A stretch of 64,000 nucleotides of DNA, from the NCBI GenBank assembly GCA_001795615.1, contig MGKI01000014.1:69380-133379 (forward strand), read 5' to 3'. Below, piece by piece: positions 5,279-28,790 of the stretch (the first letter of the stretch is position 1; the number at the start of each line of letters is the position of its first letter). The position numbers and the translations under genes are program-made. Source of the stretch: Candidatus Yanofskybacteria bacterium RIFCSPLOWO2_01_FULL_42_49. Its GTDB lineage: Bacteria > Patescibacteriota > Minisyncoccia > 2-02-FULL-40-12 > GWA2-44-9. Under the pieces are notes generated by a model, which was not told where the DNA came from, did no database searches, and saw only the letters and a program-made list of their open reading frames with translations.

Positions 5279-6664
5279 ATGCTCAAGAATGTGAACCCAA
5301 ATATATTACAAATAACCAATGCCTTTATGTATACCGAATACCCCCACAAGAGTTTTTGGTCAACTGATATGGGAAGTGAAGATTGTCATTCGGCGCTACT
5401 TGAATTATTAACCGATGAGCCCAATGTCCCTCTTTTGCTCTATGTCCATATATTGTACTGCACAAAACTTTGCTGGTTCTGTAATTGTCACATAGGAGAG
5501 ATCACCCAAAGCCAAGACAAGAGAAAAGATTATCTTGAGCTTCTTTATTCAGAAATACGATTGTTTAAGAAACTTTTTGACAAACACTCTTTGGCTCCGA
5601 ATTTTACAGAAATACATCTAGGAGGCGGATCTCCTACGGATCTTAGCATGAATGACTTTAGCCGACTGGTAGAAAATTTGAGTTCAATCGTAGATATCAA
5701 AAACTTGAGTGAATTTTCTATTGAAATAGATCCAAGACACAGCAGCAGAGAAATGCTTAGATTTTACCATAACCAAGGAATAAACCGAATTTCCTTTGGA
5801 ATTCAGGACTTTGACCCTGGTGTCCAAAAAGCCATTAACAGAATCCAGCCGATAGAGCTTGTAGAAAAACTTATGGGGCCGGAAATTAGTGATCTTTTCC
5901 CCAATGGTATAAATTTTGACATTATTTGCGGCCTGCCTCATCAAACAACCGAAACAATCAAGAGAACGATGGATGAATGTGTCCGTCTTTCGCCGGATAG
6001 GATTTGCTTCAATTATCTCCACCAGGCTCCCGAATTTTCAAAACATCAGCGACTTATGTCTGACGGTAAATTTGGAAGACCAGATCATCTTCCGGATTAT
6101 TATGAGAGGAAAAAACTCTTCACTATAGCCATGGAAACATTGATTAAAGCCGGCTATATCCGCACCGGATATGACCATTTTGCCAAACCAACTGATGCCG
6201 TGGCCAAGGCGATGGCAGAAGGTAAAATGCAATGGAATGCATTGGGAGTTACTGCGGGAAGATACACCAGTATTATTGGCGTGGGAATCCAGAGTTTTAG
6301 CACAATCGGCAATTATTATTTTCAGAATTTTTATGACTTGAAAAAATACCGGGAATCTTTGAGACAAGGACAATTTCCGATTTTCCGCGGCCATCGGCAA
6401 AACCAAGATGATCTTATCAGAAGAGATGTTATTCAAACTTTAAGAAGTTTCTTTTCTATAGATTTCAGATGTATTGACGAAAAATACGCTATTAATTTTG
6501 AGGAATATTTCGATCCAGAACTTGTGGCATTAGATGATTATGTAAGGGACGGCCTGATAGAAATAAAAGACAGGTCGATTATTATTACTGAGAAAGGGCA
6601 TCAATTCGCTAATACTGTCTGTTATGTATTTGATAAATATAAAAAAAATCGGCCCAAATTTTAA
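5279..6664 (+). CDS. HemN-like radical SAM enzyme (coproporphyrinogen III oxidase-like / class C radical SAM family)
   Basis: CTKLCWFCNC gives the HemN-type CxxxCxxCxC cluster, and HLGGGSPT matches the HemN GGGTP-like motif. Length is 461 aa and a terminator follows. Confidence 0.8.
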   Translation: MLKNVNPNILQITNAFMYTEYPHKSFWSTDMGSEDCHSALLELLTDEPNVPLLLYVHILYCTKLCWFCNCHIGEITQSQDKRKDYLELLYSEIRLFKKLFDKHSLAPNFTEIHLGGGSPTDLSMNDFSRLVENLSSIVDIKNLSEFSIEIDPRHSSREMLRFYHNQGINRISFGIQDFDPGVQKAINRIQPIELVEKLMGPEISDLFPNGINFDIICGLPHQTTETIKRTMDECVRLSPDRICFNYLHQAPEFSKHQRLMSDGKFGRPDHLPDYYERKKLFTIAMETLIKAGYIRTGYDHFAKPTDAVAKAMAEGKMQWNALGVTAGRYTSIIGVGIQSFSTIGNYYFQNFYDLKKYRESLRQGQFPIFRGHRQNQDDLIRRDVIQTLRSFFSIDFRCIDEKYAINFEEYFDPELVALDDYVRDGLIEIKDRSIIITEKGHQFANTVCYVFDKYKKNRPKF

Positions 6665-6710: not shown

Positions 6711-6741
6711 CGTTGACACTTTCTGACACTTTTTGATACTC
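6711..6741 (+). promoter_or_regulatory. Phased TGAYAC direct repeats (x3), a promoter/operator-like motif with very short leader to ATG 6752
   Basis: TTGACAC at 6713, TGACAC at 6724 and TGATAC at 6734 at 10 bp spacing. A TAAAAT -10-like hexamer sits at 6743-6748, only 4 nt before the ATG, so the message is leaderless or nearly so. Confidence 0.5.
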
Positions 6742-6751
6742 TTAAAATATC

Positions 6752-7852
6752 ATGGGCAATGAACAAAATACAAAAGTAGCCATATCAATATCCACAATGA
6801 ACCGGCCGGATTTCTTGGCTCGTACTCTTAATTATTACGCAAAATGTAAATCCCCCCACCCGGTCTATTTGTCCGATTCAAGTAGCCCTGAAAATGTTAA
6901 GATAATTAAATCAATTCTGAAAAAACTAGATAATAAATTAGAGATACATTACAACTGGCTCCCGCCCGGGTTAGAACCCCACGAAAGAACGCTTTCTGTG
7001 GTAAAAGAAAAATACGCCCTCATTAACGGAGACGACGACTACGAAATACCGTCCACTTTAACTAAGTGCGCAGAATTTCTAGAGAATAACCCGGACTATA
7101 CTGCAGCTGGGGGTCATGGCATATCTTTTCGACTTAAAACCAGTGGTCCATACGGAGAAATAAAAAGGTTGGCCGACTATCCTTTTTATCCAATTGAAGC
7201 AAATACGGCCTCTCAAAGATTAAATGATTTTTTAAAAAAATGTTTCGTCGTCACATCCGGAGTAAATCGAGTTGAACATTTGAAGAAGATCTGGGTCATT
7301 CCGTTGCCCATAATAAACACCTGGAGCGAACTATTTCAGATAAGCCATTGCGCCGTGTCCGGTAAAATAAAATTGCTGGACTGCCTGGGCATAGTTCGGC
7401 ACATTCATGACCAGCAATATTACCTGACAAGTATGGTTGATTGGCTGACCGAAAAAGAATTCTATAATTATTATACGATATTCCAAGACCACCTTGCTAA
7501 AACAATCGCAAAAATTGACAATGTTTCCATAGACCAGGCAAAACAAACTGTTAAAAACGCCTTCTGGGAATACCTGCAAGTATATATGGCAAACGAAAAA
7601 AAAGGATTGGGGGCTAACAATGAGGAGTTAAAGACAAGCTCCCCTACTTTAAAAACGTTAAGAGTAACGCTCGGAAAGACTTTTCCTGTTTTAAAAACCG
7701 CTTACCGTCAATACTTAAGACCCTTTATCTCTGATAAACAACAGATGCATTATGACGCGATGAACTCACGCTCTCCATATTTTAAAGAGTTTCAGTTTGT
7801 AATGGATTCGTTCACGGGAAAGGATATAAAAACACATGACCAACAACAATAA
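6752..7852 (+). CDS. Divergent GT-A fold (GT2-like) glycosyltransferase, paralog 3
   Basis: TKVAISISTMNRPDFLARTL...PVYLSDSSSPEN and NGDDDYEIP share the architecture of the two paralogs at 2936-5156. It is the first gene of a long + strand operon. Confidence 0.55.
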   Translation: MGNEQNTKVAISISTMNRPDFLARTLNYYAKCKSPHPVYLSDSSSPENVKIIKSILKKLDNKLEIHYNWLPPGLEPHERTLSVVKEKYALINGDDDYEIPSTLTKCAEFLENNPDYTAAGGHGISFRLKTSGPYGEIKRLADYPFYPIEANTASQRLNDFLKKCFVVTSGVNRVEHLKKIWVIPLPIINTWSELFQISHCAVSGKIKLLDCLGIVRHIHDQQYYLTSMVDWLTEKEFYNYYTIFQDHLAKTIAKIDNVSIDQAKQTVKNAFWEYLQVYMANEKKGLGANNEELKTSSPTLKTLRVTLGKTFPVLKTAYRQYLRPFISDKQQMHYDAMNSRSPYFKEFQFVMDSFTGKDIKTHDQQQ

Positions 7853-8981
7853 ACAAAACAAAAGAAGCGTGGGATTTATCCCCTACGGCCGACAATCAAT
7901 TGATAATGATGATATTAAGGCCGTCGTTAATGTCTTGCGTTCGGACTGGTTGACCCAGGGTCCTGCGGTAAAACAATTTGAAGAGTCGCTGGCTAAATAT
8001 TGCAACGCCAAATATGCCGTAGCCGTTTCAAACGGCACGGCCGCTCTTCATTTAGCGTATTTAGCCGCCGATTTAAGCGCCGGTGATGAAGTTATCACAA
8101 CCCCAAATACATTTGCCGCAACTTCAAACATGCTCCTGGCGGTTGGAGCAAAACCTATTTTCTGTGATATACGGCTTGATAACTATAATCTTGACGAAAC
8201 AAAAATAGAAAAACTTGTCACCTCAAAAACAAAAGCCATAGTTCCGGTCCATTTTGGCGGCCATCCGTGCAATATGGACAAAATATTAAGTATGGCCAAA
8301 AAACACAGCCTGCTCGTAATTGAAGATGCTTGCCATGCTCTAGGCGCCTCATTTAAGAATGAGAAGGTTGGCGGCATCGGTGATATGTCGGTTTTCAGTT
8401 TTCATCCGGTCAAATCAATAACTACCGGTGAGGGTGGGGCAATTCTGACAAATAATCCTAAATTTTATAAAAAACTGGCCCATCTCCGAACACATGGCAT
8501 AACCAAAGATGAGGGTGGATTCAATGTTATGACCGCACTAGGTTATAACTACAGAATTACCGATATTCAGACGGCCTTGGGAATAAGTCAGTTGAAGAAA
8601 CTGGATAAATTTGTAAAAGCTAGGCAGAAGATTTTCGATATCTATAAAAAAGAGCTGGCCGGTGTAAAAGAGGTCTTCACTCCCTCTCTGGCCAAAAACT
8701 CCGTTTCTTCAAATCATCTTTTTGTAATAAGGACAAAAGACCCAACAAAAAGAAATCCTCTTGCTAATTTTCTTAAACAAAACGGCATAGGCGTAAATTT
8801 TCACTATCCAACCGTTTATTCCCACCCTTATTACAGAAAAAATGGCTATAAAGATGTAAAACTAGCCAACGCCGATCTATATCATAACTCCTGTATCACG
8901 CTTCCGCTTTATGTAACACTAGAAAAGAGCCAAATAAAATACATATGCAATAAAATAAAGGAATTCTTTAAAAAAGTTTAA
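7836..8981 (+). CDS. DegT/DnrJ/EryC1/StrS-family PLP-dependent sugar aminotransferase (PseC/LegC-like)
   Basis: Contains DWLTQGP and SNGTAALHLA, the Schiff-base lysine context FHPVKSITTGEGGAI, and YNYRITDIQTALG. The ORF overlaps the upstream gene. Confidence 0.85.
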   Translation: MTNNNKQNKRSVGFIPYGRQSIDNDDIKAVVNVLRSDWLTQGPAVKQFEESLAKYCNAKYAVAVSNGTAALHLAYLAADLSAGDEVITTPNTFAATSNMLLAVGAKPIFCDIRLDNYNLDETKIEKLVTSKTKAIVPVHFGGHPCNMDKILSMAKKHSLLVIEDACHALGASFKNEKVGGIGDMSVFSFHPVKSITTGEGGAILTNNPKFYKKLAHLRTHGITKDEGGFNVMTALGYNYRITDIQTALGISQLKKLDKFVKARQKIFDIYKKELAGVKEVFTPSLAKNSVSSNHLFVIRTKDPTKRNPLANFLKQNGIGVNFHYPTVYSHPYYRKNGYKDVKLANADLYHNSCITLPLYVTLEKSQIKYICNKIKEFFKKV

Positions 8982-9090
8982 AGTAGAGAATTAAAAGTTA
9001 AAAATCAAAGTTACAAGTTAAAATTTTTTATATATAACTTTGAATTTAAAACTTTAACTTTCAACTTTACACTTTTAACTTTTTACTTAT
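8982..9090. repeat. Palindromic AT-rich AAGTTAAAAG / AACTTTCAACTT repeat element filling the intergenic gap (copy A)
   Basis: The left arm (AAAAGTTAAAAATCAAAGTTACAAGTTAAAA) and the right arm (AACTTTGAATTTAAAACTTTAACTTTCAACTTTACACTTTTAACTTTTT) are near reverse complements. It shares the k-mers AAGTTAAAAG, ACTTTCAACT and CTTTTAACTT with copy B at 60874-61005. Confidence 0.7.
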
Positions 9091-10950
9091 ATGCAAACAT
9101 ACCTACTTTTTGAGATAGCCAATTCCTGCGCTGGGTCGAGCAAATTGATAGAAAAGTTGATAGATTCCCTACCGCAAGAGGATAATTTTGGCATTAACCC
9201 CCACACTCACTTTAGATATAGCTCAAAGAGCCAAAAACTAAAGCAAGTTAAAGTGAGTGTGGGGGTAAAATTTCAAGTTTATAAGTATAACGAAATTGCC
9301 TTATCCGACTATGAATGGTATCCGGTTTATAAGCAAACCTTCATAAATGCGCAGAATTGGAAAAAGATTTTTGCTCATGCAAAGAGCAAGGGCTTTGATA
9401 TCTGGATAGATGTTTTTGATCTATATAGCGTAGAAGTTATTAAAGATAATCTGCCGTTGGTAACCGGAATAAAACTCCAGTCTTCTGTTTTGAATAACCT
9501 CAAGGTATTGACTGCATTATCTGAAGTAATAAAAAACGGAAAGATTACGGTGATGTTAAATGTTGCCGGCAGAGACCTATCAAACATCAAAGAGTTGCTT
9601 AAAGATATAAGATCAAATTATTTTGACAATAAAATTATACTTCAAGCCGGTTTTCAGGGATATCCCACCGATAAAGAAGATCTAACCGTAAGTAAGGTCC
9701 GGATCTTAAAATCCGAATTTCCTAGTACAATAATATCTTATGCCGATCATGTTGACGGCAGTTCGCCTCTTGCGTTTGATATTCCGGTTTTTGCCGTATT
9801 GGCCGGCGCCGAGCACATAGAAAAGCATGTCTGCTTAGACAGGAAAAATACAAAATACGACTTCCAATCAGCAATTGAGCCCTATGAATGTGATCTATTA
9901 ATTTACAAGCTTAATGAAGCCGAAAAAATATTGGGAACAAAGTTTATACCAGACAAGGAAGCAAATTACCTCAAAACAACAATAGAGAAACCAATCGCTT
10001 CAGTTCATTTGAGAGCCGGCGATATTATAAATTTCAAAAACTTTGACTTTAGAAGAACCGGGCAGGAGGGGCTGACTGTAGCTGAAATAAAAGAATATAT
10101 GGAAAAAAGGTACGTACTGAAAAATGATATAAAGCCCGGGAAACCGATAACAAAAAATGATCTGAAAAAAGCCAGAGTAGGCGTTATTATCGCCTGCCGA
10201 ATGAAGTCAACCCGCTTAAAACATAAAGCCATATTACCCATTCAAGGACTGGCATCAATCGAAAGATGTATTTTGAACGCTAAAAAAATTAAATCGGCTG
10301 ATGAGATAATTTTGGCAACTTCAACCCTTGAAGAAGATCAAATTCTAAAAAAATACGCCTTAAAGCATAGGATCCGTTTTTTTGCCGGAGACCCCGAGGA
10401 TGTCATACTCCGCTATTTAGGCGTAGCTGAAAAATATAATCTTGATGTTACAATCCGAGTTACCGGTGATTGCCCGATAGTGTCGTATGAGATGGCCAAA
10501 TTTTTACTGAAAAGACATTTTGAAAAAGGTAATGATTATACTGGCCCCAAAGAATATTGTACCGGACAAAATAGCGAAATATACAGTGTAAATACATTAA
10601 AAAGAATTATAAAGTACTTGGGTGATGCCAGACATTCCGAATATATGACTTGGTATATGCTTACTAATAAAGACATCTTCCAAGTAGATATGGCCGAATT
10701 GCCCAAAGAATGGATCCGCGCTTACCGGCTAACCCTGGATGTCCAAGAAGACCTTGATATGTTTAATGCCTTATTTGAAAAATTGGGCAAAAAAGAAGTA
10801 AGCATTAAAAATGTATTCGGGGTAATTGACAAGAATCCCTGGATTCACGAACTTAACGATGCCATGGTTCTTAAATACAAATCGGATAAAAAATTAATAG
10901 ACATGCTGAATAAAGAAACGAGGATAAATCCGCCCAAAATTAAAAAATGA
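9091..10950 (+). CDS. Fusion protein: divergent NeuB-like (sialic/nonulosonic acid synthase-like TIM barrel + SAF domain) fused to an acylneuraminate cytidylyltransferase-like domain (SpsE-SpsF-like)
   Basis: N-terminal ~340 aa: the order of blocks matches NeuB (...GIKLQSSVLNNLKVL..., ...ISYADHVDGSSPLAFDIPVFAVLAGAEHIEKHVCLD...) and is followed by a SAF-like segment (VHLRAGDIINFKNFDF). C-terminal ~250 aa: ARVGVIIACRMKSTRLKHKAILPI...ILATS...IRVTGDCPIV is typical of CMP-sugar cytidylyltransferases (NeuA/PseF/SpsF). Confidence 0.6.
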   Translation: MQTYLLFEIANSCAGSSKLIEKLIDSLPQEDNFGINPHTHFRYSSKSQKLKQVKVSVGVKFQVYKYNEIALSDYEWYPVYKQTFINAQNWKKIFAHAKSKGFDIWIDVFDLYSVEVIKDNLPLVTGIKLQSSVLNNLKVLTALSEVIKNGKITVMLNVAGRDLSNIKELLKDIRSNYFDNKIILQAGFQGYPTDKEDLTVSKVRILKSEFPSTIISYADHVDGSSPLAFDIPVFAVLAGAEHIEKHVCLDRKNTKYDFQSAIEPYECDLLIYKLNEAEKILGTKFIPDKEANYLKTTIEKPIASVHLRAGDIINFKNFDFRRTGQEGLTVAEIKEYMEKRYVLKNDIKPGKPITKNDLKKARVGVIIACRMKSTRLKHKAILPIQGLASIERCILNAKKIKSADEIILATSTLEEDQILKKYALKHRIRFFAGDPEDVILRYLGVAEKYNLDVTIRVTGDCPIVSYEMAKFLLKRHFEKGNDYTGPKEYCTGQNSEIYSVNTLKRIIKYLGDARHSEYMTWYMLTNKDIFQVDMAELPKEWIRAYRLTLDVQEDLDMFNALFEKLGKKEVSIKNVFGVIDKNPWIHELNDAMVLKYKSDKKLIDMLNKETRINPPKIKK

Positions 10951-11516
10951 CAACAATATACATACTGGGCGGATTTTTAAAAAAAAATCGTGACGGAAGC
11001 TACGGCAGTGATCAATTAAGTTACATAAGGGTTCTGGCCGGATATTATCTTTACAAAAAATTATCTGGAAAAAACAAGATCGAACTGATTGTTTCTGGAA
11101 GCAGAGGAATTTATAGAGGAACTCCGGGCATTCCTCGAGTGGCAATAGTAATGAAACGGGAGCTGATAGAATTAGGCCTAAGCCCAAAAGAAATAAAAAT
11201 AGATAAAACGGACTTTACTTACAAGGAACTTATCTGGCTAAAAAAATATATAGCTAAAAAAACTGGGAAAGCATTTATTGTATCTAATGCCTACCACTTA
11301 CCCAGGATTAAAACGATGATCGATATTCTTCCAGAATTGAAGGAATTAAAAAATATAATTAAATTAGTCCCCGCGGATAAAATAGCAATTAAATTCGACG
11401 AAAAATTAAAACCCAGAATTAAAAAAGCCAATAAAAGTTCGGAAATGAAAAAAATAATTTCTTCTGAAAAAGAGGGTATACGCGCATTAAGATCAGGTAA
11501 CTATAAATTCAGGTGA
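10947..11516 (+). CDS. DUF218/YdcF(ElyC)-like domain protein
   Basis: ELIVSGSRG, TDFTYKEL and IVSNAYHLPR match the conserved DUF218 blocks. Length is 189 aa and the ORF overlaps both neighbours. Confidence 0.55.
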   Translation: MTTIYILGGFLKKNRDGSYGSDQLSYIRVLAGYYLYKKLSGKNKIELIVSGSRGIYRGTPGIPRVAIVMKRELIELGLSPKEIKIDKTDFTYKELIWLKKYIAKKTGKAFIVSNAYHLPRIKTMIDILPELKELKNIIKLVPADKIAIKFDEKLKPRIKKANKSSEMKKIISSEKEGIRALRSGNYKFR

Positions 11517-12583
11517 TGGAAAAACTCATAGTAAAAATAGGGAATGAGAAAAGGGAGATCGGCCCTAACCAGCCGGCTTTTATAATTGCCGAAATGTCGG
11601 CTAATCATGGACATAACATCAGGAAAGCGTACAAAATAATCGACGAAGTAGCCAAAGCTGGTGCAGATGCAATAAAACTTCAAACCTATACTCCGGACAC
11701 GATAACCATTGATTCAAATAAAAAATACTTCCAAGTAGAAATAAATGATGCTTGGAAAGGTCAGACTCTTTACAGCTTATATAGCAAAGCATACACACCT
11801 TGGGAGTGGATGCCAAAATTAAAAAAATACGCTGAAGACAAGGGACTGGTATTTTTTTCCTCTGTTTTTGACAATACTTCAGTTGATTTTCTAGAGACAA
11901 TTAACGTACCGATCTATAAGGTGGCATCCTTTGAAGTGGTCGATATTCCCCTTCTTAAAAGAATAGGCAGAACAAAAAAACCAGTTATTATATCCCGAGG
12001 TATGTCTACCCTCTCCGAACTGAAGTTAGCTCTTAAAACGTTAAAAAATGCCGGTACTTCTTCAATCGCAATCCTTCATTGTGTAAGTTCTTATCCGGCT
12101 AAATTCGACGAAATGAATATTTATACAATTACCGATCTAATAAAAAAATTCAATCATGTCGTCGGTCTTTCTGATCATTCTCCCGGAGCAACGGCCTCAA
12201 TAGCTGCCGTGAGCTTGGGAGCAAAAGTTATAGAAAAACACATAATTTTGTCCCGTTCCGAAGGCGGACCGGACGCTGCTTTTTCTCTTGAGCCAAATGA
12301 ATTCAAAAAACTTGTTGACTCTGTCCGAAATACTGAGGCTGCGTTGGGTAAGCCTTTTTACGGCTCAGGAATAAAAGAGTCGGAAAATATTGTTTTTAGA
12401 AAGTCACTTTTTGTCGTTGAAAATATTAAAAAGGGTCAAAAATTTACAGCTCAAAATATCCGTTCAATCCGCCCCGGACATGGTCTTGAACCGAAATATT
12501 ATGAGCGGGTTATTGGAAAACTAGCCAAAGTTGACCTAGAAAAAGGCACACCGCTTAAATTAATCCACATAGAAAATGTCTAA
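11513..12583 (+). CDS. N-acetylneuraminate/pseudaminate/legionaminate synthase family (NeuB/PseI/LegI) with C-terminal SAF domain
   Basis: The N-terminus GPNQPAFIIAEMSANHGHNIRKAYKIIDEVAKAGADAIKLQTY is canonical NeuB. It also contains GLSDHSPG, LGAKVIEKH and GPDAAFSLEP, and ends with a SAF-like tail. Confidence 0.85.
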   Translation: MMEKLIVKIGNEKREIGPNQPAFIIAEMSANHGHNIRKAYKIIDEVAKAGADAIKLQTYTPDTITIDSNKKYFQVEINDAWKGQTLYSLYSKAYTPWEWMPKLKKYAEDKGLVFFSSVFDNTSVDFLETINVPIYKVASFEVVDIPLLKRIGRTKKPVIISRGMSTLSELKLALKTLKNAGTSSIAILHCVSSYPAKFDEMNIYTITDLIKKFNHVVGLSDHSPGATASIAAVSLGAKVIEKHIILSRSEGGPDAAFSLEPNEFKKLVDSVRNTEAALGKPFYGSGIKESENIVFRKSLFVVENIKKGQKFTAQNIRSIRPGHGLEPKYYERVIGKLAKVDLEKGTPLKLIHIENV

Positions 12584-13190
12584 AATTGGGGTAATCAACT
12601 ATGGCGTTGGCAATCTGCAATCCGTGAAAAACTCACTGGATTTTTTAGGCATTCCAAACGAAATTGTCGACAAGTCGCAGGAGATAAGTAGTTTTGACAA
12701 AATAATTCTGCCGGGAGTAGGCGCTTTTGGAGCCGCAATAAAAAAATTAAATGACCTTGGTTTTACTGAAGAAATAAGAAAATTCTCCAGCCAAAATAAG
12801 CCAATCCTCGGTATCTGTCTAGGTATGCAGCTTCTATTTGATGAGAGTTACGAACACGGCCACCACCAAGGTTTAGGATTAATAAAGGGAAGGGTTCTGC
12901 CTTTCAATGAAAAAATAAAAAACCTGCCTCTGCCTCAAATCGGTTGGAATAACATAACTAAAGTAGGCGTATCCCCTATTTTAAAAAATGTCGAGGATAA
13001 TTCTTGTTTTTATTTTGTCCATAGTTTTTATTGCGAACCAGAGAAAAAAACTGCCACAATAGCTAGTTCTGATTATGGCATAAAATTTGCGGCAATTATT
13101 AACGAAAATAATATCTTCGGCTGCCAGTTCCACCCGGAAAAAAGCCAGTCGGCCGGACTTCATATATTAAAGAATTTCTCTAGCCTATGA
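12576..13190 (+). CDS. HisH-like glutamine amidotransferase subunit (glycan-associated, WbuY/PseA-partner type)
   Basis: Class I GATase motifs: ILPGVGAFG, GICLGMQLL and the FHPEKS triad. It sits next to HisF-like and PP-loop amidotransferase genes rather than his genes. Confidence 0.8.
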   Translation: MSKIGVINYGVGNLQSVKNSLDFLGIPNEIVDKSQEISSFDKIILPGVGAFGAAIKKLNDLGFTEEIRKFSSQNKPILGICLGMQLLFDESYEHGHHQGLGLIKGRVLPFNEKIKNLPLPQIGWNNITKVGVSPILKNVEDNSCFYFVHSFYCEPEKKTATIASSDYGIKFAAIINENNIFGCQFHPEKSQSAGLHILKNFSSL

Positions 13191-13972
13191 TTAAACGACG
13201 CTTAATACCAGTACTTTATATTAAGAATGGCCTTATCGTAAGAAGCGAGGGATTTTCTTATCACCACAATATAGGCAACGTGGTAAAAGAAGCTGCTCGC
13301 TATAATAGCTGGGATGTTGACGAGTTAATTTATATAGACATAAGTCGAGAAAAACACTACGATCTCCGCCGTGACGATTATAATGTAAACGCCTACAACT
13401 CAATCGGATCCATCATTAAAGAAATATCCAAGGTTTGCTTTATGCCCTTAACCTTTGGAGGGGGCATACGAACTATTGATGATGTCAGTTTCAGGATACA
13501 AAATGGGGCTGATAAAATAACCTTAAACACCGGCGCACTTGAAAATCCAAAATTAATAACTCAAGCAGCTGAGAGATATGGTTCACAAGCCGTGGTGATA
13601 TCTATTGATTATAAAATTATTGAAAACCAACCAATCGTATTCACTGATTTTGGCCAAAAAAATACGAGCAAATCTGTTTACAACTGGGTCAAAGAATGCG
13701 AAAATCTAGGTGCTGGAGAAATATTTATTAACTCGATTGACCGAGATGGAAAAGCCAACGGCTACGATATTGAAACAATCAATAAAACCGTCGCATCTAC
13801 TAAATTACCCACTATCGCTTGCGGCGGAGCTGGAAATCTTGAAGATTTTGTTGAACTGGCGAAACAAACAAATGTTTCAGCCGTAGCCGCTGGAAACATA
13901 TTTCACTTTACCGAGTTAAGTTATCCAAGATCAAAAATATTGCTTAAAAAAAATAATTTAAATTTCCGTTAA
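13187..13972 (+). CDS. HisF-like cyclase subunit (glycan-associated, WbuZ-type)
   Basis: (beta/alpha)8 HisF-like blocks: RLIPVLYIKNG, LTFGGGIRT and IACGGAGNLEDF. Its position fits the acetamidino-sugar trio. Confidence 0.8.
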   Translation: MIKRRLIPVLYIKNGLIVRSEGFSYHHNIGNVVKEAARYNSWDVDELIYIDISREKHYDLRRDDYNVNAYNSIGSIIKEISKVCFMPLTFGGGIRTIDDVSFRIQNGADKITLNTGALENPKLITQAAERYGSQAVVISIDYKIIENQPIVFTDFGQKNTSKSVYNWVKECENLGAGEIFINSIDRDGKANGYDIETINKTVASTKLPTIACGGAGNLEDFVELAKQTNVSAVAAGNIFHFTELSYPRSKILLKKNNLNFR

Positions 13973-13973
13973 C

Positions 13974-15173
13974 ATGACTAAGATAACATACTGCACAAAG
14001 TGCGTTTATCCCTCAAGTTCTGCTGTTCCCCTTGCCTTTGATGAAAAAGGGTTGTGTTCCGGCTGTAGAACCAGCGGAGAAAAAGCACAGATAGATTGGG
14101 ACGATCGCAAGAAAAAATTTGAGGATATTATTGAAGAATACCGCAATAAAGACGGCACTGGTTATGATCTAATAATTCCAGTTTCCGGAGGCAAGGACAG
14201 TTACTTTCAAGTCCATCTTATGAAAAAAATTTATGGACTTAATCCGCTTCTGGTAACCTACAACGGCAACAACTATACTCCGACCGGAATGGAAAATCTC
14301 ATTAACATGAGAAATGTTTTTGGAGTTGATCATATTTTCTTCACGGCCAACATTGATGTGCTGAAAACATTAAATCGCCTCGGTGTCCAAATTTTGGGTG
14401 ATATGCAGTGGCACTACGCTTCGGGCATCTACACATACCCAATAAGGGTAGCCGTAGAGACCAAGACGCCCTTGATGCTCTGGGGCGAACACGGGCATAT
14501 GGATCTTGGCGGAATGCACTCATATAATGACTTGGTGGAATTTACATACAGATATCGGCACGAACATGTAATTCGAGGATACGAGTGGACTGATTTTTTA
14601 AAAAGAGCGCCAGAATTCGGCGAAAAACTAACTAAACAACAACTAATCCCTTGGATGTATCCTTCAGATGAGGAGATAGCTAGTGTTGGTGTTCGGGGTA
14701 TTTATACCGCTAATTATTTTAAATGGGATGCCAATATCCACGGGCCAATGGTAATGGAAAAATACGGTTTTAAGGTACCCGATGAACCTTTTGAAAGGAC
14801 TTATAGAAAGATGTCAAACTTAGACGATATGCATGAGAATGGCGTACATGATTACCTAAAGTTTATAAAATTTGGCTATGGTCGAGCAACTGACCATGTT
14901 TGCAAAGATATCCGATCGGGCATTATGACCCGTGAACGAGGAATTGAATTAGTTAAAAACATGGACCACCTCAAACCAAAAGATACCCAGCGATGGTTAA
15001 AATATGTCGGTTGGACAGAAGAAAAATTTGATAAAATTGCCGATACTTTCCGCGACCAGCGAGTTTGGTGGATCAAAGACGGCCAGTGGTGGAAAGACAA
15101 TCTTTGGAGGGAACCATCTGCTTACGGAAAGGTCCACTTGGACCCGAAACAACAGAAAAAATACTTATTGTAA
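13974..15173 (+). CDS. N-acetyl sugar amidotransferase (PP-loop ATP pyrophosphatase; PseA/WbpG/WbuX-like)
   Basis: An N-terminal Cys-rich segment CTKCVYPSS...CSGCR is followed by the PP-loop SGGKDS. Length is 399 aa and it follows the HisH/HisF homologs. Confidence 0.8.
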   Translation: MTKITYCTKCVYPSSSAVPLAFDEKGLCSGCRTSGEKAQIDWDDRKKKFEDIIEEYRNKDGTGYDLIIPVSGGKDSYFQVHLMKKIYGLNPLLVTYNGNNYTPTGMENLINMRNVFGVDHIFFTANIDVLKTLNRLGVQILGDMQWHYASGIYTYPIRVAVETKTPLMLWGEHGHMDLGGMHSYNDLVEFTYRYRHEHVIRGYEWTDFLKRAPEFGEKLTKQQLIPWMYPSDEEIASVGVRGIYTANYFKWDANIHGPMVMEKYGFKVPDEPFERTYRKMSNLDDMHENGVHDYLKFIKFGYGRATDHVCKDIRSGIMTRERGIELVKNMDHLKPKDTQRWLKYVGWTEEKFDKIADTFRDQRVWWIKDGQWWKDNLWREPSAYGKVHLDPKQQKKYLL

Positions 15174-15231
15174 ATTTTACTTTTAACTCATTCATGCTAT
15201 CATCCTGTTAGTTTTTCAATACCGAGTAAAC

Positions 15232-15672
15232 ATGGGACTAATCATCAGACCAGCACAACTTGATGACGCACAAAGAATTTGGGAGATTAGGAATGAACCC
15301 CAAGCCAGGGCTGTTGCGGCCAACTCAGACGTAATTCCCCTCGCCCAGCATATTAGCTGGTTCGAGAACAAATATTTTAAACCCGAGGGTGATTCTTGTT
15401 TTGTGGCTGAAATTGACGGGAAAGTTATCGGTTATTGCCGTTTTGATTCGGAAGGAGATCATTACTTAAACTCAATCGCCGTTACTTCATCAATGCATGG
15501 CAAGGGAATCGGCACTATCCTACTCGGCCAATCAATAAAACAACTGAAAACAGACAAGCCGATCCACGCTGAGGTAAGGAGATATAATCTAGCATCTGTG
15601 AAAATATTTGAAAGAAACGGTTTTAAGAAAGTGTCCGAAGACAAAAAAAATATATATTATCAATTAACATAA
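15232..15672 (+). CDS. GNAT-family N-acetyltransferase (PseH-like)
   Basis: 146 aa with the GNAT acetyl-CoA pocket block HGKGIGTILL...RNGFKK. It is located inside the nonulosonate module. Confidence 0.7.
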   Translation: MGLIIRPAQLDDAQRIWEIRNEPQARAVAANSDVIPLAQHISWFENKYFKPEGDSCFVAEIDGKVIGYCRFDSEGDHYLNSIAVTSSMHGKGIGTILLGQSIKQLKTDKPIHAEVRRYNLASVKIFERNGFKKVSEDKKNIYYQLT

Positions 15673-15674
15673 AA

Positions 15675-15691
15675 GACCCCGAGAAGGGGTC
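15675..15691. terminator. Bidirectional hairpin between convergent genes
   Basis: GACCCC-GAGAA-GGGGTC. On the - strand it is followed by TTTTATG. It overlaps the stop codons of both flanking genes. Confidence 0.5.
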
Positions 15692-16761
15692 TATCGCTTA
15701 TAGTAATTTAAGACAGCTTGAGCAACACGCTCACCATTAAGCCCGTCTGCCTGAAAATATTTCTGCTGGGCTTGCAGCATAGCCGCTGTATCGCCGACAA
15801 GTATTCTCTTTAAACAGTTCCTGACTTCTTCTATGCTTTCTGCTTTTAAAGATGCGCCGAGATTAGTAATTGGCCATTCGGTCATAATGTTACTTCTTGC
15901 TTCTGAAAGCAATTGACCGATTTCAGGAGTCCAAATAGTAATTAGTGGTTTCCGTAAATAACACGCCTCAACCGTCATGGTTGAATATATTCCGACAACA
16001 ATGTCCGAGCCTGCCATAATTTCGCCGCTGGTAAGACCGCTGGGATTAACAACCTTGCCCATCCGTAAACAACTTAATTCCTTCCGATATTCTAAATAAA
16101 TCTTTTTAAACTCTTCTGTTGCCCCAGAAGAAACAACAGATGGATGATCTGCTAAGATAAGATAGATCGGATTATCAAAATTATTCACGGCCTCGACAAA
16201 CATTTTGACAGCTTTGGGCATTCCCCAAGCTTGACCGGCAAAAAATACCACCGGCCAGTTTTCTCTAAGCCTCAAAACATCATGTAATGCATATCGTGCA
16301 ATTTCAGTTTCAACTTCGGCATACTTATCAAAAAAAGGCATACCGGTTACATGAATATTAGATTCTGGATAGTTGGGCCACGACCTAAGAATCAGGCATT
16401 TCGCAAATTCATCCACGACGCAAACACCGTCCGGCAAGATATCCCACTTAAACGAAGCATGCCCTCCCCATACCTCCTCGACCAGAACGGTCGGCAGATT
16501 TCTTTGTTTAGCTTCTTTATTTAAACCTATTGGTATAGACCCGCCCTTGATAGCAACCGTTAAAATGACCAATGACGGCCCGAGGGAATTGAGTAAATCA
16601 CTTATTTTTTGTTCAGGAAAGAATAAAAGCTTGTCTTTCAAATATTCGGGCGCCAATCCTTCAGCATAAACAGATACTGGAATTCCTTTATCTTTAAGTA
16701 TGTTTATCACCGATAGACAAGCATTTACAGAACCGGTATCCCGTAACCCGAAAAGAACCAC
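15691..16761 (-). CDS. GT-B fold protein, candidate UDP-sugar hydrolase/2-epimerase of the nonulosonate pathway (PseG/NeuC-like)
   Basis: 356 aa with two Rossmann-like halves and a C-terminal G-rich loop ...AGSDIVVGIYSTMTVEA.... The assignment rests mainly on context and fold-level resemblance. Confidence 0.4.
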   Translation of the reverse strand: MVLFGLRDTGSVNACLSVINILKDKGIPVSVYAEGLAPEYLKDKLLFFPEQKISDLLNSLGPSLVILTVAIKGGSIPIGLNKEAKQRNLPTVLVEEVWGGHASFKWDILPDGVCVVDEFAKCLILRSWPNYPESNIHVTGMPFFDKYAEVETEIARYALHDVLRLRENWPVVFFAGQAWGMPKAVKMFVEAVNNFDNPIYLILADHPSVVSSGATEEFKKIYLEYRKELSCLRMGKVVNPSGLTSGEIMAGSDIVVGIYSTMTVEACYLRKPLITIWTPEIGQLLSEARSNIMTEWPITNLGASLKAESIEEVRNCLKRILVGDTAAMLQAQQKYFQADGLNGERVAQAVLNYYKR

Positions 16762-16829
16762 AAAATACTACCTTTTCAAGGAACTTTGAGCAATAATACC
16801 TCAATCGCCTAAAATAGCAATTTTAGAGA

Positions 16830-17306
16830 TTATCTAGCCTTTACTGACCAAACATCGCCCCATTTGTAAGGGTCGAAGCGCTTGTCATCTTTAAGAGACT
16901 CCTGGGTAGTGGAGGTTGAAGCGCAGATGAGAATTGTATCATCGGAAAGAGAAACCCAGCCATTGGCATAGAATGGGGGTATTATTATGAGATTATTTTT
17001 TCTTACCGAGCTGACGAATTGGAATTTATCGTCTGGTTTATCAGGATCTAATGCGACAAATTTAGCCGAACCGGACACGATAACAAAAAATTTCCATTCT
17101 TTTTCGTGATAATGAAACCCGCGGACAACCTCCTTGCTATCGTTACAAACATAATACATTCTCTTAATAACGCCTGCCTTGGGAGCTATTTCTTCCAAAC
17201 CATTTATAAACGGGGCAAAAGTCCCCCGATCATCGGCAAAAACAGGATATTCAACGGCTCGAGGTTGATTGTGATTCACTTTTTTCATTCTTTTTGTTTG
17301 CTTCAT
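16830..17306 (-). CDS. Cupin-fold sugar-nucleotide isomerase/epimerase (FdtA/WxcM C-terminal domain / RmlC-like)
   Basis: Cupin motif RGFHYHEKEWKFFVIVSGSAKF, of the form G-x-H-x-H...E...G. Length is 158 aa. Confidence 0.5.
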   Translation of the reverse strand: MKQTKRMKKVNHNQPRAVEYPVFADDRGTFAPFINGLEEIAPKAGVIKRMYYVCNDSKEVVRGFHYHEKEWKFFVIVSGSAKFVALDPDKPDDKFQFVSSVRKNNLIIIPPFYANGWVSLSDDTILICASTSTTQESLKDDKRFDPYKWGDVWSVKAR

Positions 17307-17315
17307 GTGGGATTT

Positions 17316-17436
17316 ATCCCGTTAGAGGTCCGACCCGCCTGAAAGGCGTGGTTCTCGGAGTGTGGGCATCCCCACTCCTGGGGAACTCTGTCGGCAGACG
17401 ACCCCGACTTGAGTCGGGGCGTCTTACCTCTAACGG
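17316..17436. ncRNA. GC-rich highly structured intercistronic element (candidate cis-regulatory RNA / sRNA / attenuator)
   Basis: A closing helix of 12 perfect bp (CCCGTTAGAGGT ... ACCTCTAACGGG) encloses CCGAC/GTCGG, a CGCC-TGAAA-GGCG hairpin, a GGAGTG/CACTCC hairpin and an AGACG-[CCCCGAC-TTGA-GTCGGGG]-CGTCT stem. The region is roughly 60% GC against AT-rich flanks. On the - strand it lies between the SDR stop (inside the helix) and the cupin start codon 11 nt away. On the + strand it is followed by ACCATATTTTTTT. Confidence 0.35.
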
Positions 17437-18443
17437 GACCATATTTTTTTATTATCCTTCATCAAACCCGCCAAATGTTTTTCGTTAAAGTGAACTGTCT
17501 CTTCTGAGGATGTTCTATTAAAACTGGCTAAAGATGCCATTTCTTTTATGCCATGGTCTAAATTATACCTCAACCCCTTAAGGAGTCCTGCTCTTTTTGC
17601 CTTATCTGCATTAACATGATAATTGCGCTCGTCTTGAAATGGCTGTTCAGTTGACTCAACTTTACAGTTTGTTAATTTGCTAACTCTGTCCGCCAAGTCC
17701 TTTATTTGAGAATTTTCGGTGACAAGATTGTAAATTCCTTTTGCGCTGTTATCAAGACCGTTAACAAAAGCCATGGCAATATCTTTCACATGAATAAATG
17801 GCCTCCACTGGGTACCGCCAAAGTAAGTTAGCTTACCCTCACCAATGGCCTTAAAACTCAAGAAGTTAACGGCTAGATCCAGACGGACCCTGGAGTGACT
17901 ATCGGAAATACCATAGGCAGTACCGATCCGATACATTAAAACATTCGGATGTTTAATGAGGAACGATTCTACTTCCAGCTTGCTTCTGGCGTAAAGCGAG
18001 AGTGGATTTGTCGGCGATGATTCAGTAAGCATTGAATCGCTCTTGCCATAAACAGAACAAGTTGAAGCAAAAAGTATCCGTCCTTTGTAATTTTTTACCA
18101 GCCACTTAACGGGTTCGACATTGACTGCCCTGGTCATCCATTCATCTATCTGGCAGCCCGGATCGCCGACAATTGCCGCTAGCCAAATAATGTGAGTATA
18201 TTTAGGCAATACGGACTTGAGTTTCTTATAATCCCTAACGTCACCATATACAAAATCAACCGGTTTTAAATACTGATGCTCGTAAACAAGCTTGTCGTAA
18301 ACGCTAAAAGGAATTCTTTTGGCAACCAAAATATCGGTTATAGCACCGCCAATATAACCGGCTCCACCGACAACAAGAACTTTGATTTTGCTGTTGTTTC
18401 CCATATAATTTTTATATAATAACAAAGATAAGCTGTAATGCAA
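17430..18443 (-). CDS. NAD-dependent sugar-nucleotide dehydratase/epimerase (extended SDR; PseB/LegB candidate)
   Basis: Rossmann motif VLVVGGAGYIGG and catalytic YARSK (YxxxK). Probable start is MGNNSKIKVL at ~18404. Confidence 0.8.
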   Translation of the reverse strand: MHYSLSLLLYKNYMGNNSKIKVLVVGGAGYIGGAITDILVAKRIPFSVYDKLVYEHQYLKPVDFVYGDVRDYKKLKSVLPKYTHIIWLAAIVGDPGCQIDEWMTRAVNVEPVKWLVKNYKGRILFASTCSVYGKSDSMLTESSPTNPLSLYARSKLEVESFLIKHPNVLMYRIGTAYGISDSHSRVRLDLAVNFLSFKAIGEGKLTYFGGTQWRPFIHVKDIAMAFVNGLDNSAKGIYNLVTENSQIKDLADRVSKLTNCKVESTEQPFQDERNYHVNADKAKRAGLLKGLRYNLDHGIKEMASLASFNRTSSEETVHFNEKHLAGLMKDNKKIWSR

Positions 18444-18453
18444 TATCTATTAT

Positions 18454-18493
18454 GTTGATATCTGTTGACACCTTTTGACATCTTTTGATACTC
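18454..18493 (+). promoter_or_regulatory. Phased TGAYAY direct repeats (x4, exact 10 bp spacing), promoter/operator-like
   Basis: TGATAT at 18456, TGACAC at 18466, TGACAT at 18476 and TGATAC at 18486, with CTTTT spacers. An AGAGG SD lies ~10 nt before ATG 18521. Confidence 0.5.
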
Positions 18494-18520: not shown

Positions 18521-19414
18521 ATGCTAATAAGTACCGTCCAAAAACTCAAAGCCATTCCAAGTTATCTTTACAGGAATTATGCCGCTCCTAAATTTTACAG
18601 TATCCGAGACAGAATGATCCTGTCAAGAAATTTGGAACTTAAAAATAAATATGTCGGCCGGCGTTGTTTTATTCTTGGCGCCGGACCCTCTATAGCTGAC
18701 ACTGATCTTTCGCGGCTGAGACAAGAGCATGTTTTTGTAGTTAACGAGTTTGAGAAGAATAAACAGCATCGCTCTTTAACGCCGACATTTCACATCATAT
18801 CGGAATCAAATTATTTTAACGAAAACGGACCGGAGTATTGGCGCAACCGCTTTAAGGAAAAGAATAAATACATATCTGCCGACACAACTATTATAACCAA
18901 CTTGGCAGCAATACCATTCATTCAGAAACATGACTTGTTTAAAGAGCATAGGATATACTATACAGGCACACAGGGAATTTTCAGCAATAATCTGCCTTTT
19001 AGTATAGATCTTAATCACTATGTTCCCAATCCCAAAAATTCAATTTTAATGTGCATGATTGCGGCCACTTGGATGGGTTTTAATAAAATTTATCTTCTTG
19101 GCTGCGAACACAGTTTCCTGGCTCAACCTTTGGGTAAAAATAAATCTCTCGGGTTCGGTCATAGCTATGAAGATGAAACATCTAGCCTTGATAATGCCGA
19201 CAATGCAACCCTGAAGAAATATATTGATGCCAAAGAACTGAATTTTACCTACGAGATGAGCATCGCCAACATATTGCAATTATTTAAAAATTACCGCTTA
19301 TTTTACTCTAAAGCGCGCAGAATCCATCCAGATTTACAAATATTCAACGCCACGCCTAATAGTTTTCTGGATGTTTTTCCTATGATAAATTTTGAAGATA
19401 TAATGGGACTATGA
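18521..19414 (+). CDS. DUF115 / motility-accessory-factor (Maf)-like protein, candidate nonulosonic acid transferase
   Basis: FILGAGPSIADTDL...VFVVNEF and a C-terminal ...IYLLGCEH... resemble the MptE-like/Maf family. It is the first gene downstream of the shared promoter motif. Confidence 0.4.
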   Translation: MLISTVQKLKAIPSYLYRNYAAPKFYSIRDRMILSRNLELKNKYVGRRCFILGAGPSIADTDLSRLRQEHVFVVNEFEKNKQHRSLTPTFHIISESNYFNENGPEYWRNRFKEKNKYISADTTIITNLAAIPFIQKHDLFKEHRIYYTGTQGIFSNNLPFSIDLNHYVPNPKNSILMCMIAATWMGFNKIYLLGCEHSFLAQPLGKNKSLGFGHSYEDETSSLDNADNATLKKYIDAKELNFTYEMSIANILQLFKNYRLFYSKARRIHPDLQIFNATPNSFLDVFPMINFEDIMGL

Positions 19415-20136
19415 AACATATCCGATATAACAATATAGAGGTTGTATATAAAGAAAAGCTACATGGCGGAGGAATTAGATTCGGACAGCAATTTATTCCC
19501 ATAGTAAAGGAAAGGTTCGGCCATGTTGGCCACATATTTGAATTTTGTGCTGGACCTGGATTCATCGGATTTTCACTGCTTGCAAATAATCTCTGCGATA
19601 AATTAACTGTGGCCGATATAAACCCGGAAGCTGTTAAGGTGTTAAGTGAGACGGTCAAAAAAAATGGCCTAGAGTCAAAGGTTGCCGTCTATCTTTCCGA
19701 CTGTCTGGATAGCATACCTGAGACAGAAAAGTGGGATCTGGTCGTCAGTAACCCACCTCATGTTTTTTGCGCAAATGAAGATGAGCACAAAAAAAATATA
19801 ATTTTATTTGACCCTAATTTTAACATACATAAACGATTCTATAGGGATATCAAAAAATTTTTAAAGCCAACCGGTTCAGTGCTGCTTCAGGAACACACAG
19901 AATCAACAAACATAGACGATTTCAAAAGTATGATAGAAGAGAACGGGCTTAAAATAGTTGATGTTTTTACATATACTTCCCCAGTTAAAGTTATCGGCCC
20001 TAAAAACACTCTCGGTTTTAACTTTCCAACTCTGCGCAAAATTTTTAATCCGTTTAAAGTTTATAGGGCCGCAAAAAGACGGCTCTGGCCGAATAAGCCC
20101 AGGAACTATTATTTTATCCACGCTAAAATAGCATGA
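19411..20136 (+). CDS. Class I SAM-dependent methyltransferase
   Basis: FEFCAGPGFIG (motif I-like), DINPEA and VVSNPPH (NPPY-like motif IV). Confidence 0.7.
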   Translation: MKHIRYNNIEVVYKEKLHGGGIRFGQQFIPIVKERFGHVGHIFEFCAGPGFIGFSLLANNLCDKLTVADINPEAVKVLSETVKKNGLESKVAVYLSDCLDSIPETEKWDLVVSNPPHVFCANEDEHKKNIILFDPNFNIHKRFYRDIKKFLKPTGSVLLQEHTESTNIDDFKSMIEENGLKIVDVFTYTSPVKVIGPKNTLGFNFPTLRKIFNPFKVYRAAKRRLWPNKPRNYYFIHAKIA

Positions 20137-28758: not shown

Positions 28759-28790
28759 AAAAAAAATAAAAACCCTCTAATCTGAGGGTT
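28759..28790 (-). terminator. Rho-independent terminator of the radical SAM gene 28789-30369
   Basis: On the - strand, AACCCTCAGATTAGAGGGTT is followed by TTTATTTTTTTT. It overlaps the stop codon. Confidence 0.65.

Follow-up and report, generated by a model that had tools for sequence, protein, structure and literature searches.

Which sugar is made by the large glycan locus of Candidatus Yanofskybacteria bacterium RIFCSPLOWO2_01_FULL_42_49, a tiny groundwater member of the candidate phyla radiation (CPR), and does the locus encode every step of its synthesis? The question arises from a 64 kb stretch of contig MGKI01000014.1 (positions 69,380 to 133,379, here called the window), in which an initial annotation had described a pathway for a pseudaminic (Pse) or legionaminic (Leg) type of nonulosonic acid (NulO), together with a gene trio for acetamidino formation. 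Open reading frames (ORFs) of at least 100 aa were listed across the window and scanned against Pfam and NCBIfam, and the statements below on absent pathway and histidine genes refer to this set. The results make it fairly probable that the region is the biosynthetic core for a Pse-type 5,7-diamino NulO with an acetamidino group, lying within a surface-glycan locus of more than 50 kb, where functional assignments that go beyond family membership are inferred from sequence. The cluster is real and conserved, and Pse-type acetamidino-NulO clusters are of a kind already known and partly annotated. What is new here is the CPR host, the use of a widespread and apparently unstudied fusion protein in place of PseF, and the apparent replacement of PseB and PseG by non-orthologous proteins.

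All genes named in the initial annotation are present, and its outer coordinates coincide exactly with ORF ends. The same gene arrangement occurs on about 10 independent contigs from metagenomes or metagenome-assembled genomes (6–10 kb of flank were viewed per related locus), a recurrence which argues that the cluster is not a chance assembly of ORFs; the closest genomes are other Yanofskybacteria. The inventory was right, but it overlooked three things: the cytidylyltransferase shares one polypeptide with a second synthase (hereafter the fusion), a cupin gene lies between the genes for a short-chain dehydrogenase/reductase (SDR) and a GT-B protein, and a DUF218 gene belongs to the core.

Pse-type enzymes and the acetamidino trio

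The type of pathway is indicated by two enzymes. PseC (7836–8981, + strand), the pyridoxal phosphate (PLP)-dependent C4 aminotransferase of UDP-4-keto-sugars, scored 459.9 bits on its equivalog model TIGR03588 (cut-off 423.5) and 419 bits on Pfam DegT, compared with 267 bits on the LegC model (cut-off 420). The pseudaminic acid synthase PseI (11513–12583, +), a NeuB plus SAF domain protein for phosphoenolpyruvate (PEP) condensation, scored 454.7 bits on TIGR03586 (cut-off 340.25) and 312.8 bits on the NeuB model (cut-off 399.65). Its nearest solved structure is Campylobacter jejuni PseI (8H2C, 281 bits, against 170 bits for NeuB), and its NCBI entry (OGN00498.1) is already named 'pseudaminic acid synthase'; two other window proteins have the entries OGN00496.1 and OGN00504.1. 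The legionaminic pathway was not reached at equivalog level by any window ORF (LegC as above; LegB, 125 bits or less against 475; NeuB/LegI type, 313 against 400), and no PtmE-like gene for GDP-GlcNAc supply was seen in the window. The choice between Pse and Leg, which had been said to be undecidable by eye, can thus be made with curated models. By these the pathway is of the Pse type, because PseC and PseI pass the Pse equivalog cut-offs and fail those for Leg and Neu, ruling out a Leg- or Neu-type pathway, and because the homologues of the operon in 79 other genomes are canonical Pse operons.

A GNAT N-acetyltransferase gene (15232–15672, +) is the probable equivalent of PseH. Its product scored 44.7 bits on the PseH model TIGR03585 (cut-off 93.1), and members of the same GNAT cluster (c23) take up the PseH slot in canonical Pse operons of Lentimicrobiaceae (locus L006) and Geosporobacter (L039).

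Between pseI and the GNAT gene lies the acetamidino trio. The N-acetyl sugar amidotransferase (NASAT; WbuX/WbpG/PseA family, 399 aa; 13974–15173, +) scored 325 bits on TIGR03573 (cut-off 203) and 150 bits against the Legionella NASAT structure 8WEX. Two motifs define this family, a PP-loop SGGxDS and a tetracysteine CxxC...[GN]xCxxC (PMC10607449), and both are found in the window protein, as SGGKDS at residues 71–76 and CxxC...GxCxxC at residues 7–31 (C7xxC10...G-L-C28xxC31). The HisH-like protein (12576–13190, +; TIGR01855, 233.8 bits; Pfam GATase) is a WbuY-type glutaminase and ammonia donor that retains the Cys/His/Glu signature (GICLGMQ with Cys81, FHPE with His186 and Glu188), and the HisF-like barrel (13187–13972, +) is of the WbuZ or AglZ/HisF2 type. 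The proposal of an acetamidino-forming trio inside a NulO cluster is borne out by the TIGR03573 score, the homology to 8WEX and the two motifs.

It is scarcely credible that the HisH/HisF pair serves ordinary histidine biosynthesis. The HisH-like protein does pass the generic hisH model, but the HisF-like protein fails the hisF cut-off (206.9 bits against 294.55); its top match is WbuZ (TIGR03572, 255 bits, cut-off 299.7), followed by AglZ/HisF2 (208.6 bits). The scanned ORFs of the 64 kb window include no further his gene, and the pair always adjoins a NASAT gene. Imidazole glycerol phosphate synthase was rejected as an identity for the pair on the failed equivalog cut-off of HisF and the lack of other his genes in the scanned ORFs.

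The trio could also act on a hexosamine of the glycan, as for FucNAm of Escherichia coli O145 or ManNAc3NAmA of Pseudomonas aeruginosa O5. The NASAT family was first defined on hexosamines (PMC10607449), and among the window genes one resembles a 2-epimerase and another a UDP-GlcNAc 3-dehydrogenase (38260–39273), yet here translational coupling links the trio to pseI. In many other phyla it sits within canonical PseB-PseC-...-PseG-PseI operons, between the fusion and PseG/PseI (Methylophilus, Pusillimonas, Castellaniella, Chryseobacterium and others), and such embedding makes a nonulosonate target much more likely than a hexosamine target. The closest solved NASAT relative comes from Legionella, the O-antigen of which is Leg5Am7Ac. 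A hexosamine target is accordingly regarded as very improbable.

Among the closest relatives (L004, L085, L088, L089 and L091), the PseC and fusion proteins of which are about 80% identical, the trio occurs in two lineages and at two positions. One lineage follows pseI and is 72–88% identical to the window trio, while the other, about 40% identical to it, is placed after the fusion gene and before that for DUF218; in L088, which is from the same metagenome as the window, the trio is absent. This pattern suggests a swappable decoration cassette, subject to gain, loss and replacement.

Candidates for the PseF, PseB and PseG steps

The initially labeled genes are real, but two interpretations placed on them, 'complete' for the pathway and 'dehydratase' for the SDR, did not hold. 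The pathway genes had been said to cover every step; in the 64 kb, however, no match was found to PseB (TIGR03589) or PseG (TIGR03590), a PseG hidden Markov model (HMM) built from 44 loci detected nothing relevant, and the PseF model TIGR03584 gave 13.8 bits against a cut-off of 205.7, leaving the 64 kb with no canonical PseF. Since the canonical enzymes were not found in the 64 kb, the pathway is complete only if non-orthologous proteins do the jobs of PseB, PseG and PseF.

The candidate for PseF is the 619 aa fusion (9091–10950, +), which combines a NeuB-type synthase (Pfam NeuB, 80 bits) with the sole cytidylyltransferase domain of the 64 kb (CTP_transf_3, 78 bits). In its AlphaFold (AF2) model (predicted local distance difference test score, pLDDT, of 90.4), residues ~1–355 form the synthase, a TIM barrel plus SAF-like domain, and residues ~360–619 a cytidylyltransferase of the SpsF/6OEW type. 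Foldseek comparison of the N-terminal part (~355 residues) with whole NulO synthases gave template modelling (TM) scores of 0.84 for 3G8R, 0.74 for PseI and 0.68 for NeuB, and the C-terminal domain matched 6OEW with 0.87–0.89. The N-terminal domain passes the Pfam NeuB cut-off, does not reach the PseI and NeuB subfamily cut-offs, and is about equally far from NeuB, PseI and SpsE. Conserved in PseI and the fusion family alike are Glu8, Lys60/Gln62, Lys128, Tyr191-Pro192, Asp219-His220, Glu244-Lys245-His246, Asp257 and Arg322, with His220 and His246 as the metal-binding histidines, whereas several substrate-lining positions differ systematically from those of PseI (Ser to Asn157, Cys to Gly187, Ser to Gln189, Ser to Ala218). 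Judging from the alignment and the model, the fusion is probably a bifunctional synthase/activase with an intact-looking active site. Residue 13 is Cys in the window fusion and its closest relatives; in 97% of the family and in all PseI it is the His of an N-terminal 'NH' motif.

Members of the fusion family are about 595 aa long and are found in CPR bacteria, Bacteroidota, Proteobacteria, Firmicutes, Aminicenantes, Omnitrophota, Fusobacterium and Methanospirillum (the last two listed as family members, their genomic context not examined). Neighboring genes were clustered in 80 genome loci of the family, and the modal order is PseB-PseC-fusion-PseG-(PseH)-PseI. PseI is present in 71/80 loci, the PseB-containing SDR cluster in 67/80, PseC in 58/80 and PseG in 43/80, and cluster representatives scored 510 bits for PseB, 193 bits for PseG and 309 bits for a Pse-associated methylase on the NCBIfam models. 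The fusion holds the PseF slot in 79 of the 80 loci; just two carry any other cytidylyltransferase-like ORF, so the fusion is the sole one in 78, which argues that its C-terminal domain is, by position, the functional equivalent of PseF. A few full-length loci (L007, L032) have the fusion without a separate PseI. The family appears to be uncharacterised, and a literature search on synthase-cytidylyltransferase fusions found nothing relevant.

The window fusion gene also carries a palindromic insertion (9198–9265) of about 72 nt, in frame, with two perfect 17 bp inverted arms, CCCCCACACTCACTTTA. The sister contig L088 lacks it, and at this site L001 carries another insert, which is shorter. The encoded loop (residues 34–51) has a pLDDT below 50 and is disordered, and the insertion looks like a small palindromic element tolerated in the coding region.

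The place of PseB may be taken by the SDR and cupin. The extended SDR (17430–18443, − strand; Pfam Epimerase, 92 bits) carries the motif S-T-C-S-V-Y-G...Y151xxxK155, and STCSVYG, Cys97, Tyr151 and Lys155 are invariant in 117 sequences (the window protein and 116 homologues). 4,6-Dehydratases use an Asp-Glu or Asp-Lys pair after the Thr, and the SDR has neither dyad. Among solved structures it comes nearest to 6VO6 (121 bits; motif T-N-S-G-Y-G), which we take to be Cj1427, a GDP-heptose C4-dehydrogenase. A PseB- or RmlB-type dehydratase was rejected on motif and nearest relative, and the protein initially called a dehydratase is probably a nucleotide-sugar C4-dehydrogenase. A second large SDR in the window (46668–47708, −), of the GalE/TviC-like epimerase type, was rejected as a hidden dehydratase on its motif SSMSVYG, and the canonical 4,6-dehydratase motif occurs in no SDR of the 64 kb. 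The cupin (16830–17306, −; Pfam dTDP_sugar_isom, 37 bits; FdtA, 34.5 bits) is of the RmlC/FdtA/QdtA type, that is, a keto-sugar epimerase or isomerase; it has an RGFHYHEK motif, and its matches to PDB 5BUV, QdtA, FdtA, RmlC and GDP-4-keto-heptose 3,5-epimerase are all weak.

The cupin is always paired with the SDR. The pair stands beside Pse genes in every close relative (L001, L004, L081–L091), none of which has PseB; of the roughly 11 CPR Pse loci carrying the pair, none encodes PseB. Conversely, the pair is absent from the three PseB-containing CPR loci that are more distantly related (L002, L003 and L005) and from each of 80 further metagenome PseB loci. When metagenome contigs were searched with a Yanofskybacteria PseB, the contig of the window was not among the best 80 matches listed. 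Given this distribution, we tentatively favor replacement of PseB by the pair, at slightly less than even odds.

An alternative is that an ordinary Pse pathway operates with pseB and pseG elsewhere in the genome, and that the product of the SDR, cupin and GT-B module is another nucleotide sugar destined for this glycan, such as an L-configured N-acetylhexosamine (HexNAc) formed via C4 oxidation, C3/C5 epimerisation, RmlD-like reduction and 2-epimerisation. A precedent is L094, where genes for an RmlD-like reductase and an Epimerase_2 protein come after the pair and NulO genes are lacking in the vicinity. Two RmlD-like 4-reductases are also encoded in the window (37170–38093 and 43949–44845, both −), the SDR and cupin have the C. 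jejuni heptose C4-dehydrogenase/3,5-epimerase system among their nearest solved relatives, the GT-B protein is 2-epimerase-like, and the window covers 64 kb of the genome. Against this, not one of about 94 sampled loci combines PseB with the pair, though both always lie beside pseC or NeuB genes; in L092 the pair adjoins a NulO/amidotransferase set, and in L093 it heads a compact SDR-cupin-NeuB-DUF218-x-cytidylyltransferase-aminotransferase operon. PseG, moreover, is present in no CPR locus examined. A separate sugar of this kind seems unlikely, though it deserves serious consideration.

Two proteins were considered for the PseG step, the removal of the nucleotide from the sugar. The DUF218 gene (10947–11516, +; Pfam DUF218, 38.7 bits) is present in every CPR locus examined, all of them without PseG, and absent from 43 loci with PseG, the two being mutually exclusive in all loci examined. 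It adjoins a synthase gene in two unrelated architectures, that of the window and that of L093, where it lies beside NeuB. Because it is core in CPR loci, lies beside a synthase in two architectures and never occurs with PseG, DUF218 is favored for the hydrolase step and is a better candidate than the GT-B protein, although from gene distribution the assignment is speculative. A literature search on DUF218 in NulO clusters found nothing relevant.

The other protein, 356 aa in length (X356; 15691–16761, −), had no Pfam or PDB sequence match. Its AF2 model (pLDDT 92.6) has a GT-B fold resembling UDP-GlcNAc 2-epimerase, with WecB, MnaA and 6VLB as the best Foldseek matches (TM 0.63–0.70, E ~1e-12; 6VLB and 6VLC are from Neisseria meningitidis), and its homologues give faint Epimerase_2 matches. 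The earlier description as a GT-B hydrolase/epimerase candidate agrees with this at the level of fold. As a LegG/NeuC hydrolysing 2-epimerase the protein has the fold, at the TM scores just given, without sequence-level membership, and it was rejected as a PseG orthologue, the fold being 2-epimerase-like and sequence support being absent. The gene is found in the window and in L085–L087 and is missing from L001, L004 and L088–L091; since several of these loci are otherwise identical, it is an accessory gene and does not supply a core step.

The pathway proposed for a Pse-type product would run as follows. The SDR might oxidise C4 of a nucleotide-HexNAc and the cupin epimerise it to an L-configured 4-keto sugar, the product of PseB elsewhere. 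PseC would then transaminate C4, as its equivalog model strongly indicates, and the GNAT would plausibly acetylate the new amine. Nucleotide removal is the speculative step, which could fall to DUF218 most likely, or to the accessory X356 where present. PseI, again strongly indicated, would condense the free hexose with PEP, and the cytidylyltransferase domain of the fusion, from its operon position in 79 genomes, would quite probably form the CMP-sugar in PseF's stead; the fused N-terminal domain is probably a second synthase passing its product straight to the activating domain. NASAT would adenylate one N-acetyl carbonyl and swap its oxygen for ammonia, released by HisH from glutamine and delivered through the HisF-like barrel, a class of chemistry to which family membership points strongly. 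Lastly, a GT42/Maf-like enzyme (see below) may move the sugar onto a glycan or protein.

A different product is also conceivable, namely a related and possibly undescribed NulO (another stereoisomer or a 9-hydroxy analogue) in place of pseudaminic acid. No window SDR has the canonical 4,6-dehydratase motif, the first steps fall to a C4-dehydrogenase and cupin, and a second, divergent synthase domain is present that is about equally far from NeuB, PseI and SpsE and has substrate-lining positions unlike those of PseI. The divergent 'PseF' of Tannerella forsythia, moreover, is inactive on Pse5Ac7Ac (PMC5378307). On the other hand, PseC and PseI are equivalog-level matches and 71–83% identical to those of PseB-carrying relatives, which argues for the same intermediates, and another NulO is rather improbable as the product. 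A wider version of the idea, in which this CPR lineage follows a route that bypasses the inverting 4,6-dehydratase and PseG, with the SDR and cupin supplying PseC and DUF218 releasing the hexose, and leads to an undescribed acetamidino NulO (with its 9-hydroxyl kept or with new stereochemistry), the fusion being an unrecognised second class of NulO synthase/activase, is likewise doubtful.

Several points weigh against the Pse-type reading preferred here. The scores of the GNAT on the PseH model, of the HisF-like protein on WbuZ and of the GT42/Maf-like protein on its Pfam family are all below the curated cut-offs. An SDR that oxidises only C4 would give a product that retains its 6-OH, which is not the normal substrate of PseC. 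The SDR-cupin pair can serve an unrelated sugar, as L094 and the two RmlD-like reductases of the window indicate, and we know of no hydrolase activity for DUF218. The coexistence of PseI with a second intact synthase domain in most of the operons has no explanation. The genome of about 1 Mb, of which 64 kb were covered, could hold PseB and PseG at another place, and the complementary distributions come from few related lineages and may reflect perhaps one or two evolutionary events.

Operon structure, transferase and surrounding glycan locus

The genes from 6752 to 15672 form a plus-strand operon in which they overlap or abut (overlaps of 17, 4, 4, 8 and 4 nt). The first specifies a TIGR04440-type glycosyltransferase (6752–7852, +; 134.9 bits, cut-off 70), and its 3' end overlaps the start of pseC by 17 nt. 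One to three TIGR04440 copies always lie directly 5' of pseC in the loci of CPR relatives; in the window three paralogues (2936–4003, −; 3996–5156, −; and 6752–7852, +) flank a HemN-like radical SAM gene (5279–6664). The operon and the convergent minus-strand module (SDR, cupin and X356 genes) end at a common GC-rich hairpin (15674–15692), AGACCCCTTCTCGGGGTCT followed by a T-run, which is a probable bidirectional terminator. A promoter-like TTGACA-N16-GATACT pair occurs just 5' of the plus-strand operon (6713–6740, +), and again 5' of the GT42/Maf-like gene (18465–18492, +) and, on the minus strand, 5' of the SDR gene (18626–18599, −).

The GT42/Maf-like protein (18521–19414, +) is a candidate CMP-nonulosonate transferase. 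Its match to Pfam MptE-like (PF01973) is 26.4 bits (cut-off 34.6), and single-sequence PDB searches with it and with the TIGR04440 glycosyltransferase gave nothing useful. A profile of its family matched the Cst-II sialyltransferase 1RO8 weakly but coherently (E = 0.0035 over ~190 residues) and, marginally, the WaaZ Kdo transferase (E = 0.014) and Maf 5MU5 (E = 0.36). CPR loci conserve the gene next to the cluster, and in 18 Bacteroidota loci the fusion has a member of a related family as its neighbor. Downstream are conserved tailoring genes for a methyltransferase (19411–20136, +), a carbamoyltransferase (20133–21983, +) and a polysaccharide deacetylase (21922–22818, +), an order also kept in L081, L085, L086 and L091. 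In L092 and L093, from other Patescibacteria, Capsule_synth (KpsC/KpsS-like) genes adjoin the SDR-cupin-NeuB clusters; this family, presumably of beta-Kdo transferases, may represent another class of CMP-ulosonate transferase in CPR bacteria.

The remainder of the window forms a single large glycan locus, with many GT4 and GT2 genes, B12-radical-SAM enzymes, a PMT_2 protein and at least one Wzy_C plus TPR protein; no flagellar genes were seen in the window. Three consecutive large proteins (55463–57724, 57775–59589 and 60217–62055, all −) end in TPR repeats, the first having a Wzy_C domain (O-antigen ligase or O-oligosaccharyltransferase), and a GT-C protein of the PMT_2 family is encoded at 35495–37192. 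With its Wzy_C/TPR and PMT_2 proteins, the locus may direct glycan assembly on a lipid carrier and transfer to a surface protein or polymer. Two B12-binding radical SAM enzymes, one KedN5-like (28789–30369, −) and the other similar to P-methyltransferases (30485–32614, −), are both large, recur in relatives and may serve as C-methylases or deoxygenases of sugars. The UDP-GlcNAc 3-dehydrogenase-like gene mentioned above (Gfo/Idh/MocA family) is followed by one for a sugar C-methyltransferase (Methyltransf_13/14), both within 38260–40506 (+), a hint that the glycan contains a second unusual sugar, amino or branched.

Significance and comparison with known systems

Nonulosonic acids such as pseudaminic acid are major determinants of bacterial surfaces; phages use them as receptors, they contribute to immune evasion and flagellar assembly, and the enzymes of their pathways are targets for drugs and glyco-engineering. 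The ultra-small CPR bacteria are regarded as minimal in their metabolism and as living attached to host cells, and a literature search found no paper that links them with NulOs. If the proposed pathway is confirmed, a CPR bacterium commits a very large locus to a sialic acid-like, positively charged surface sugar, and the cell-surface chemistry of this group becomes testable. The fusion would stand in PseF's place across Bacteroidota, Proteobacteria, Firmicutes and other phyla, and might explain the inactivity of the Tannerella 'PseF' in vitro, while replacement of PseB (by SDR and cupin) and of PseG (by DUF218) would bring new enzyme chemistry to a textbook pathway.

The closest parallel is the CMP-Pse pathway of C. 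jejuni and Helicobacter pylori (PseB, C, H, G, I and F, with PseA and Cj1314c/Cj1315c for Pse5Ac7Am). Shared with it are the equivalog-level PseC and PseI, a GNAT in the probable PseH role, the NASAT, HisH-like and HisF-like trio, and an adjoining Maf/GT42-like candidate transferase. The window differs in having the SDR and cupin, DUF218 and the fusion where PseB, PseG and PseF would be, in its lack of flagellar genes and in its CPR host. A non-flagellar acetamidino-Pse system is known from T. forsythia ATCC 43037, where the Pse5Am7Gra locus serves protein O-glycosylation of the S-layer and other surface proteins (PMC5378307, PMC6120980). Its order, pseB-pseC-...-'pseF'-...-pseG-pseI, resembles that discussed here, but it has PseB and PseG. 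The 'PseF' of this species (Tanf_01200) scores 37 bits against Cj1311, and its inactivity on Pse5Ac7Ac (PMC5378307) would fit a divergent activating enzyme; the protein may belong to the fusion family.

For the trio, the comparable NASAT systems are WbuX/WbuY/WbuZ of E. coli O145, WbpG of P. aeruginosa and LpNASAT (8WEX) of Legionella pneumophila, which have in common with it the SGGKDS motif, the Zn tetracysteine, the glutaminase and barrel partners, and the conversion of N-acetyl to N-acetimidoyl groups. The window trio differs from these in being embedded in a Pse operon and, among close relatives, in having two lineages and two positions or being absent (L088). For the SDR and cupin, the C. 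jejuni capsular heptose modification system, with the C4-dehydrogenase Cj1427, the cupin C3/C5-epimerase Cj1430 and the reductase Cj1428 (PMC10680097), offers the same dyad-less active-site motif (SDR compared with 6VO6) and the same pairing of an SDR with a cupin, whereas the pair in the window has no adjacent reductase and its neighbors are NulO genes. Finally, the two halves of the fusion are structurally closest to proteins of the type of SpsE and SpsF of Bacillus subtilis and of the NeuB (6NCS) and cytidylyltransferase (6OEW) of Leptospira borgpetersenii. Those are separate proteins, whereas in the window and in 79 other genomes the two parts are joined in one polypeptide beside a canonical PseI.

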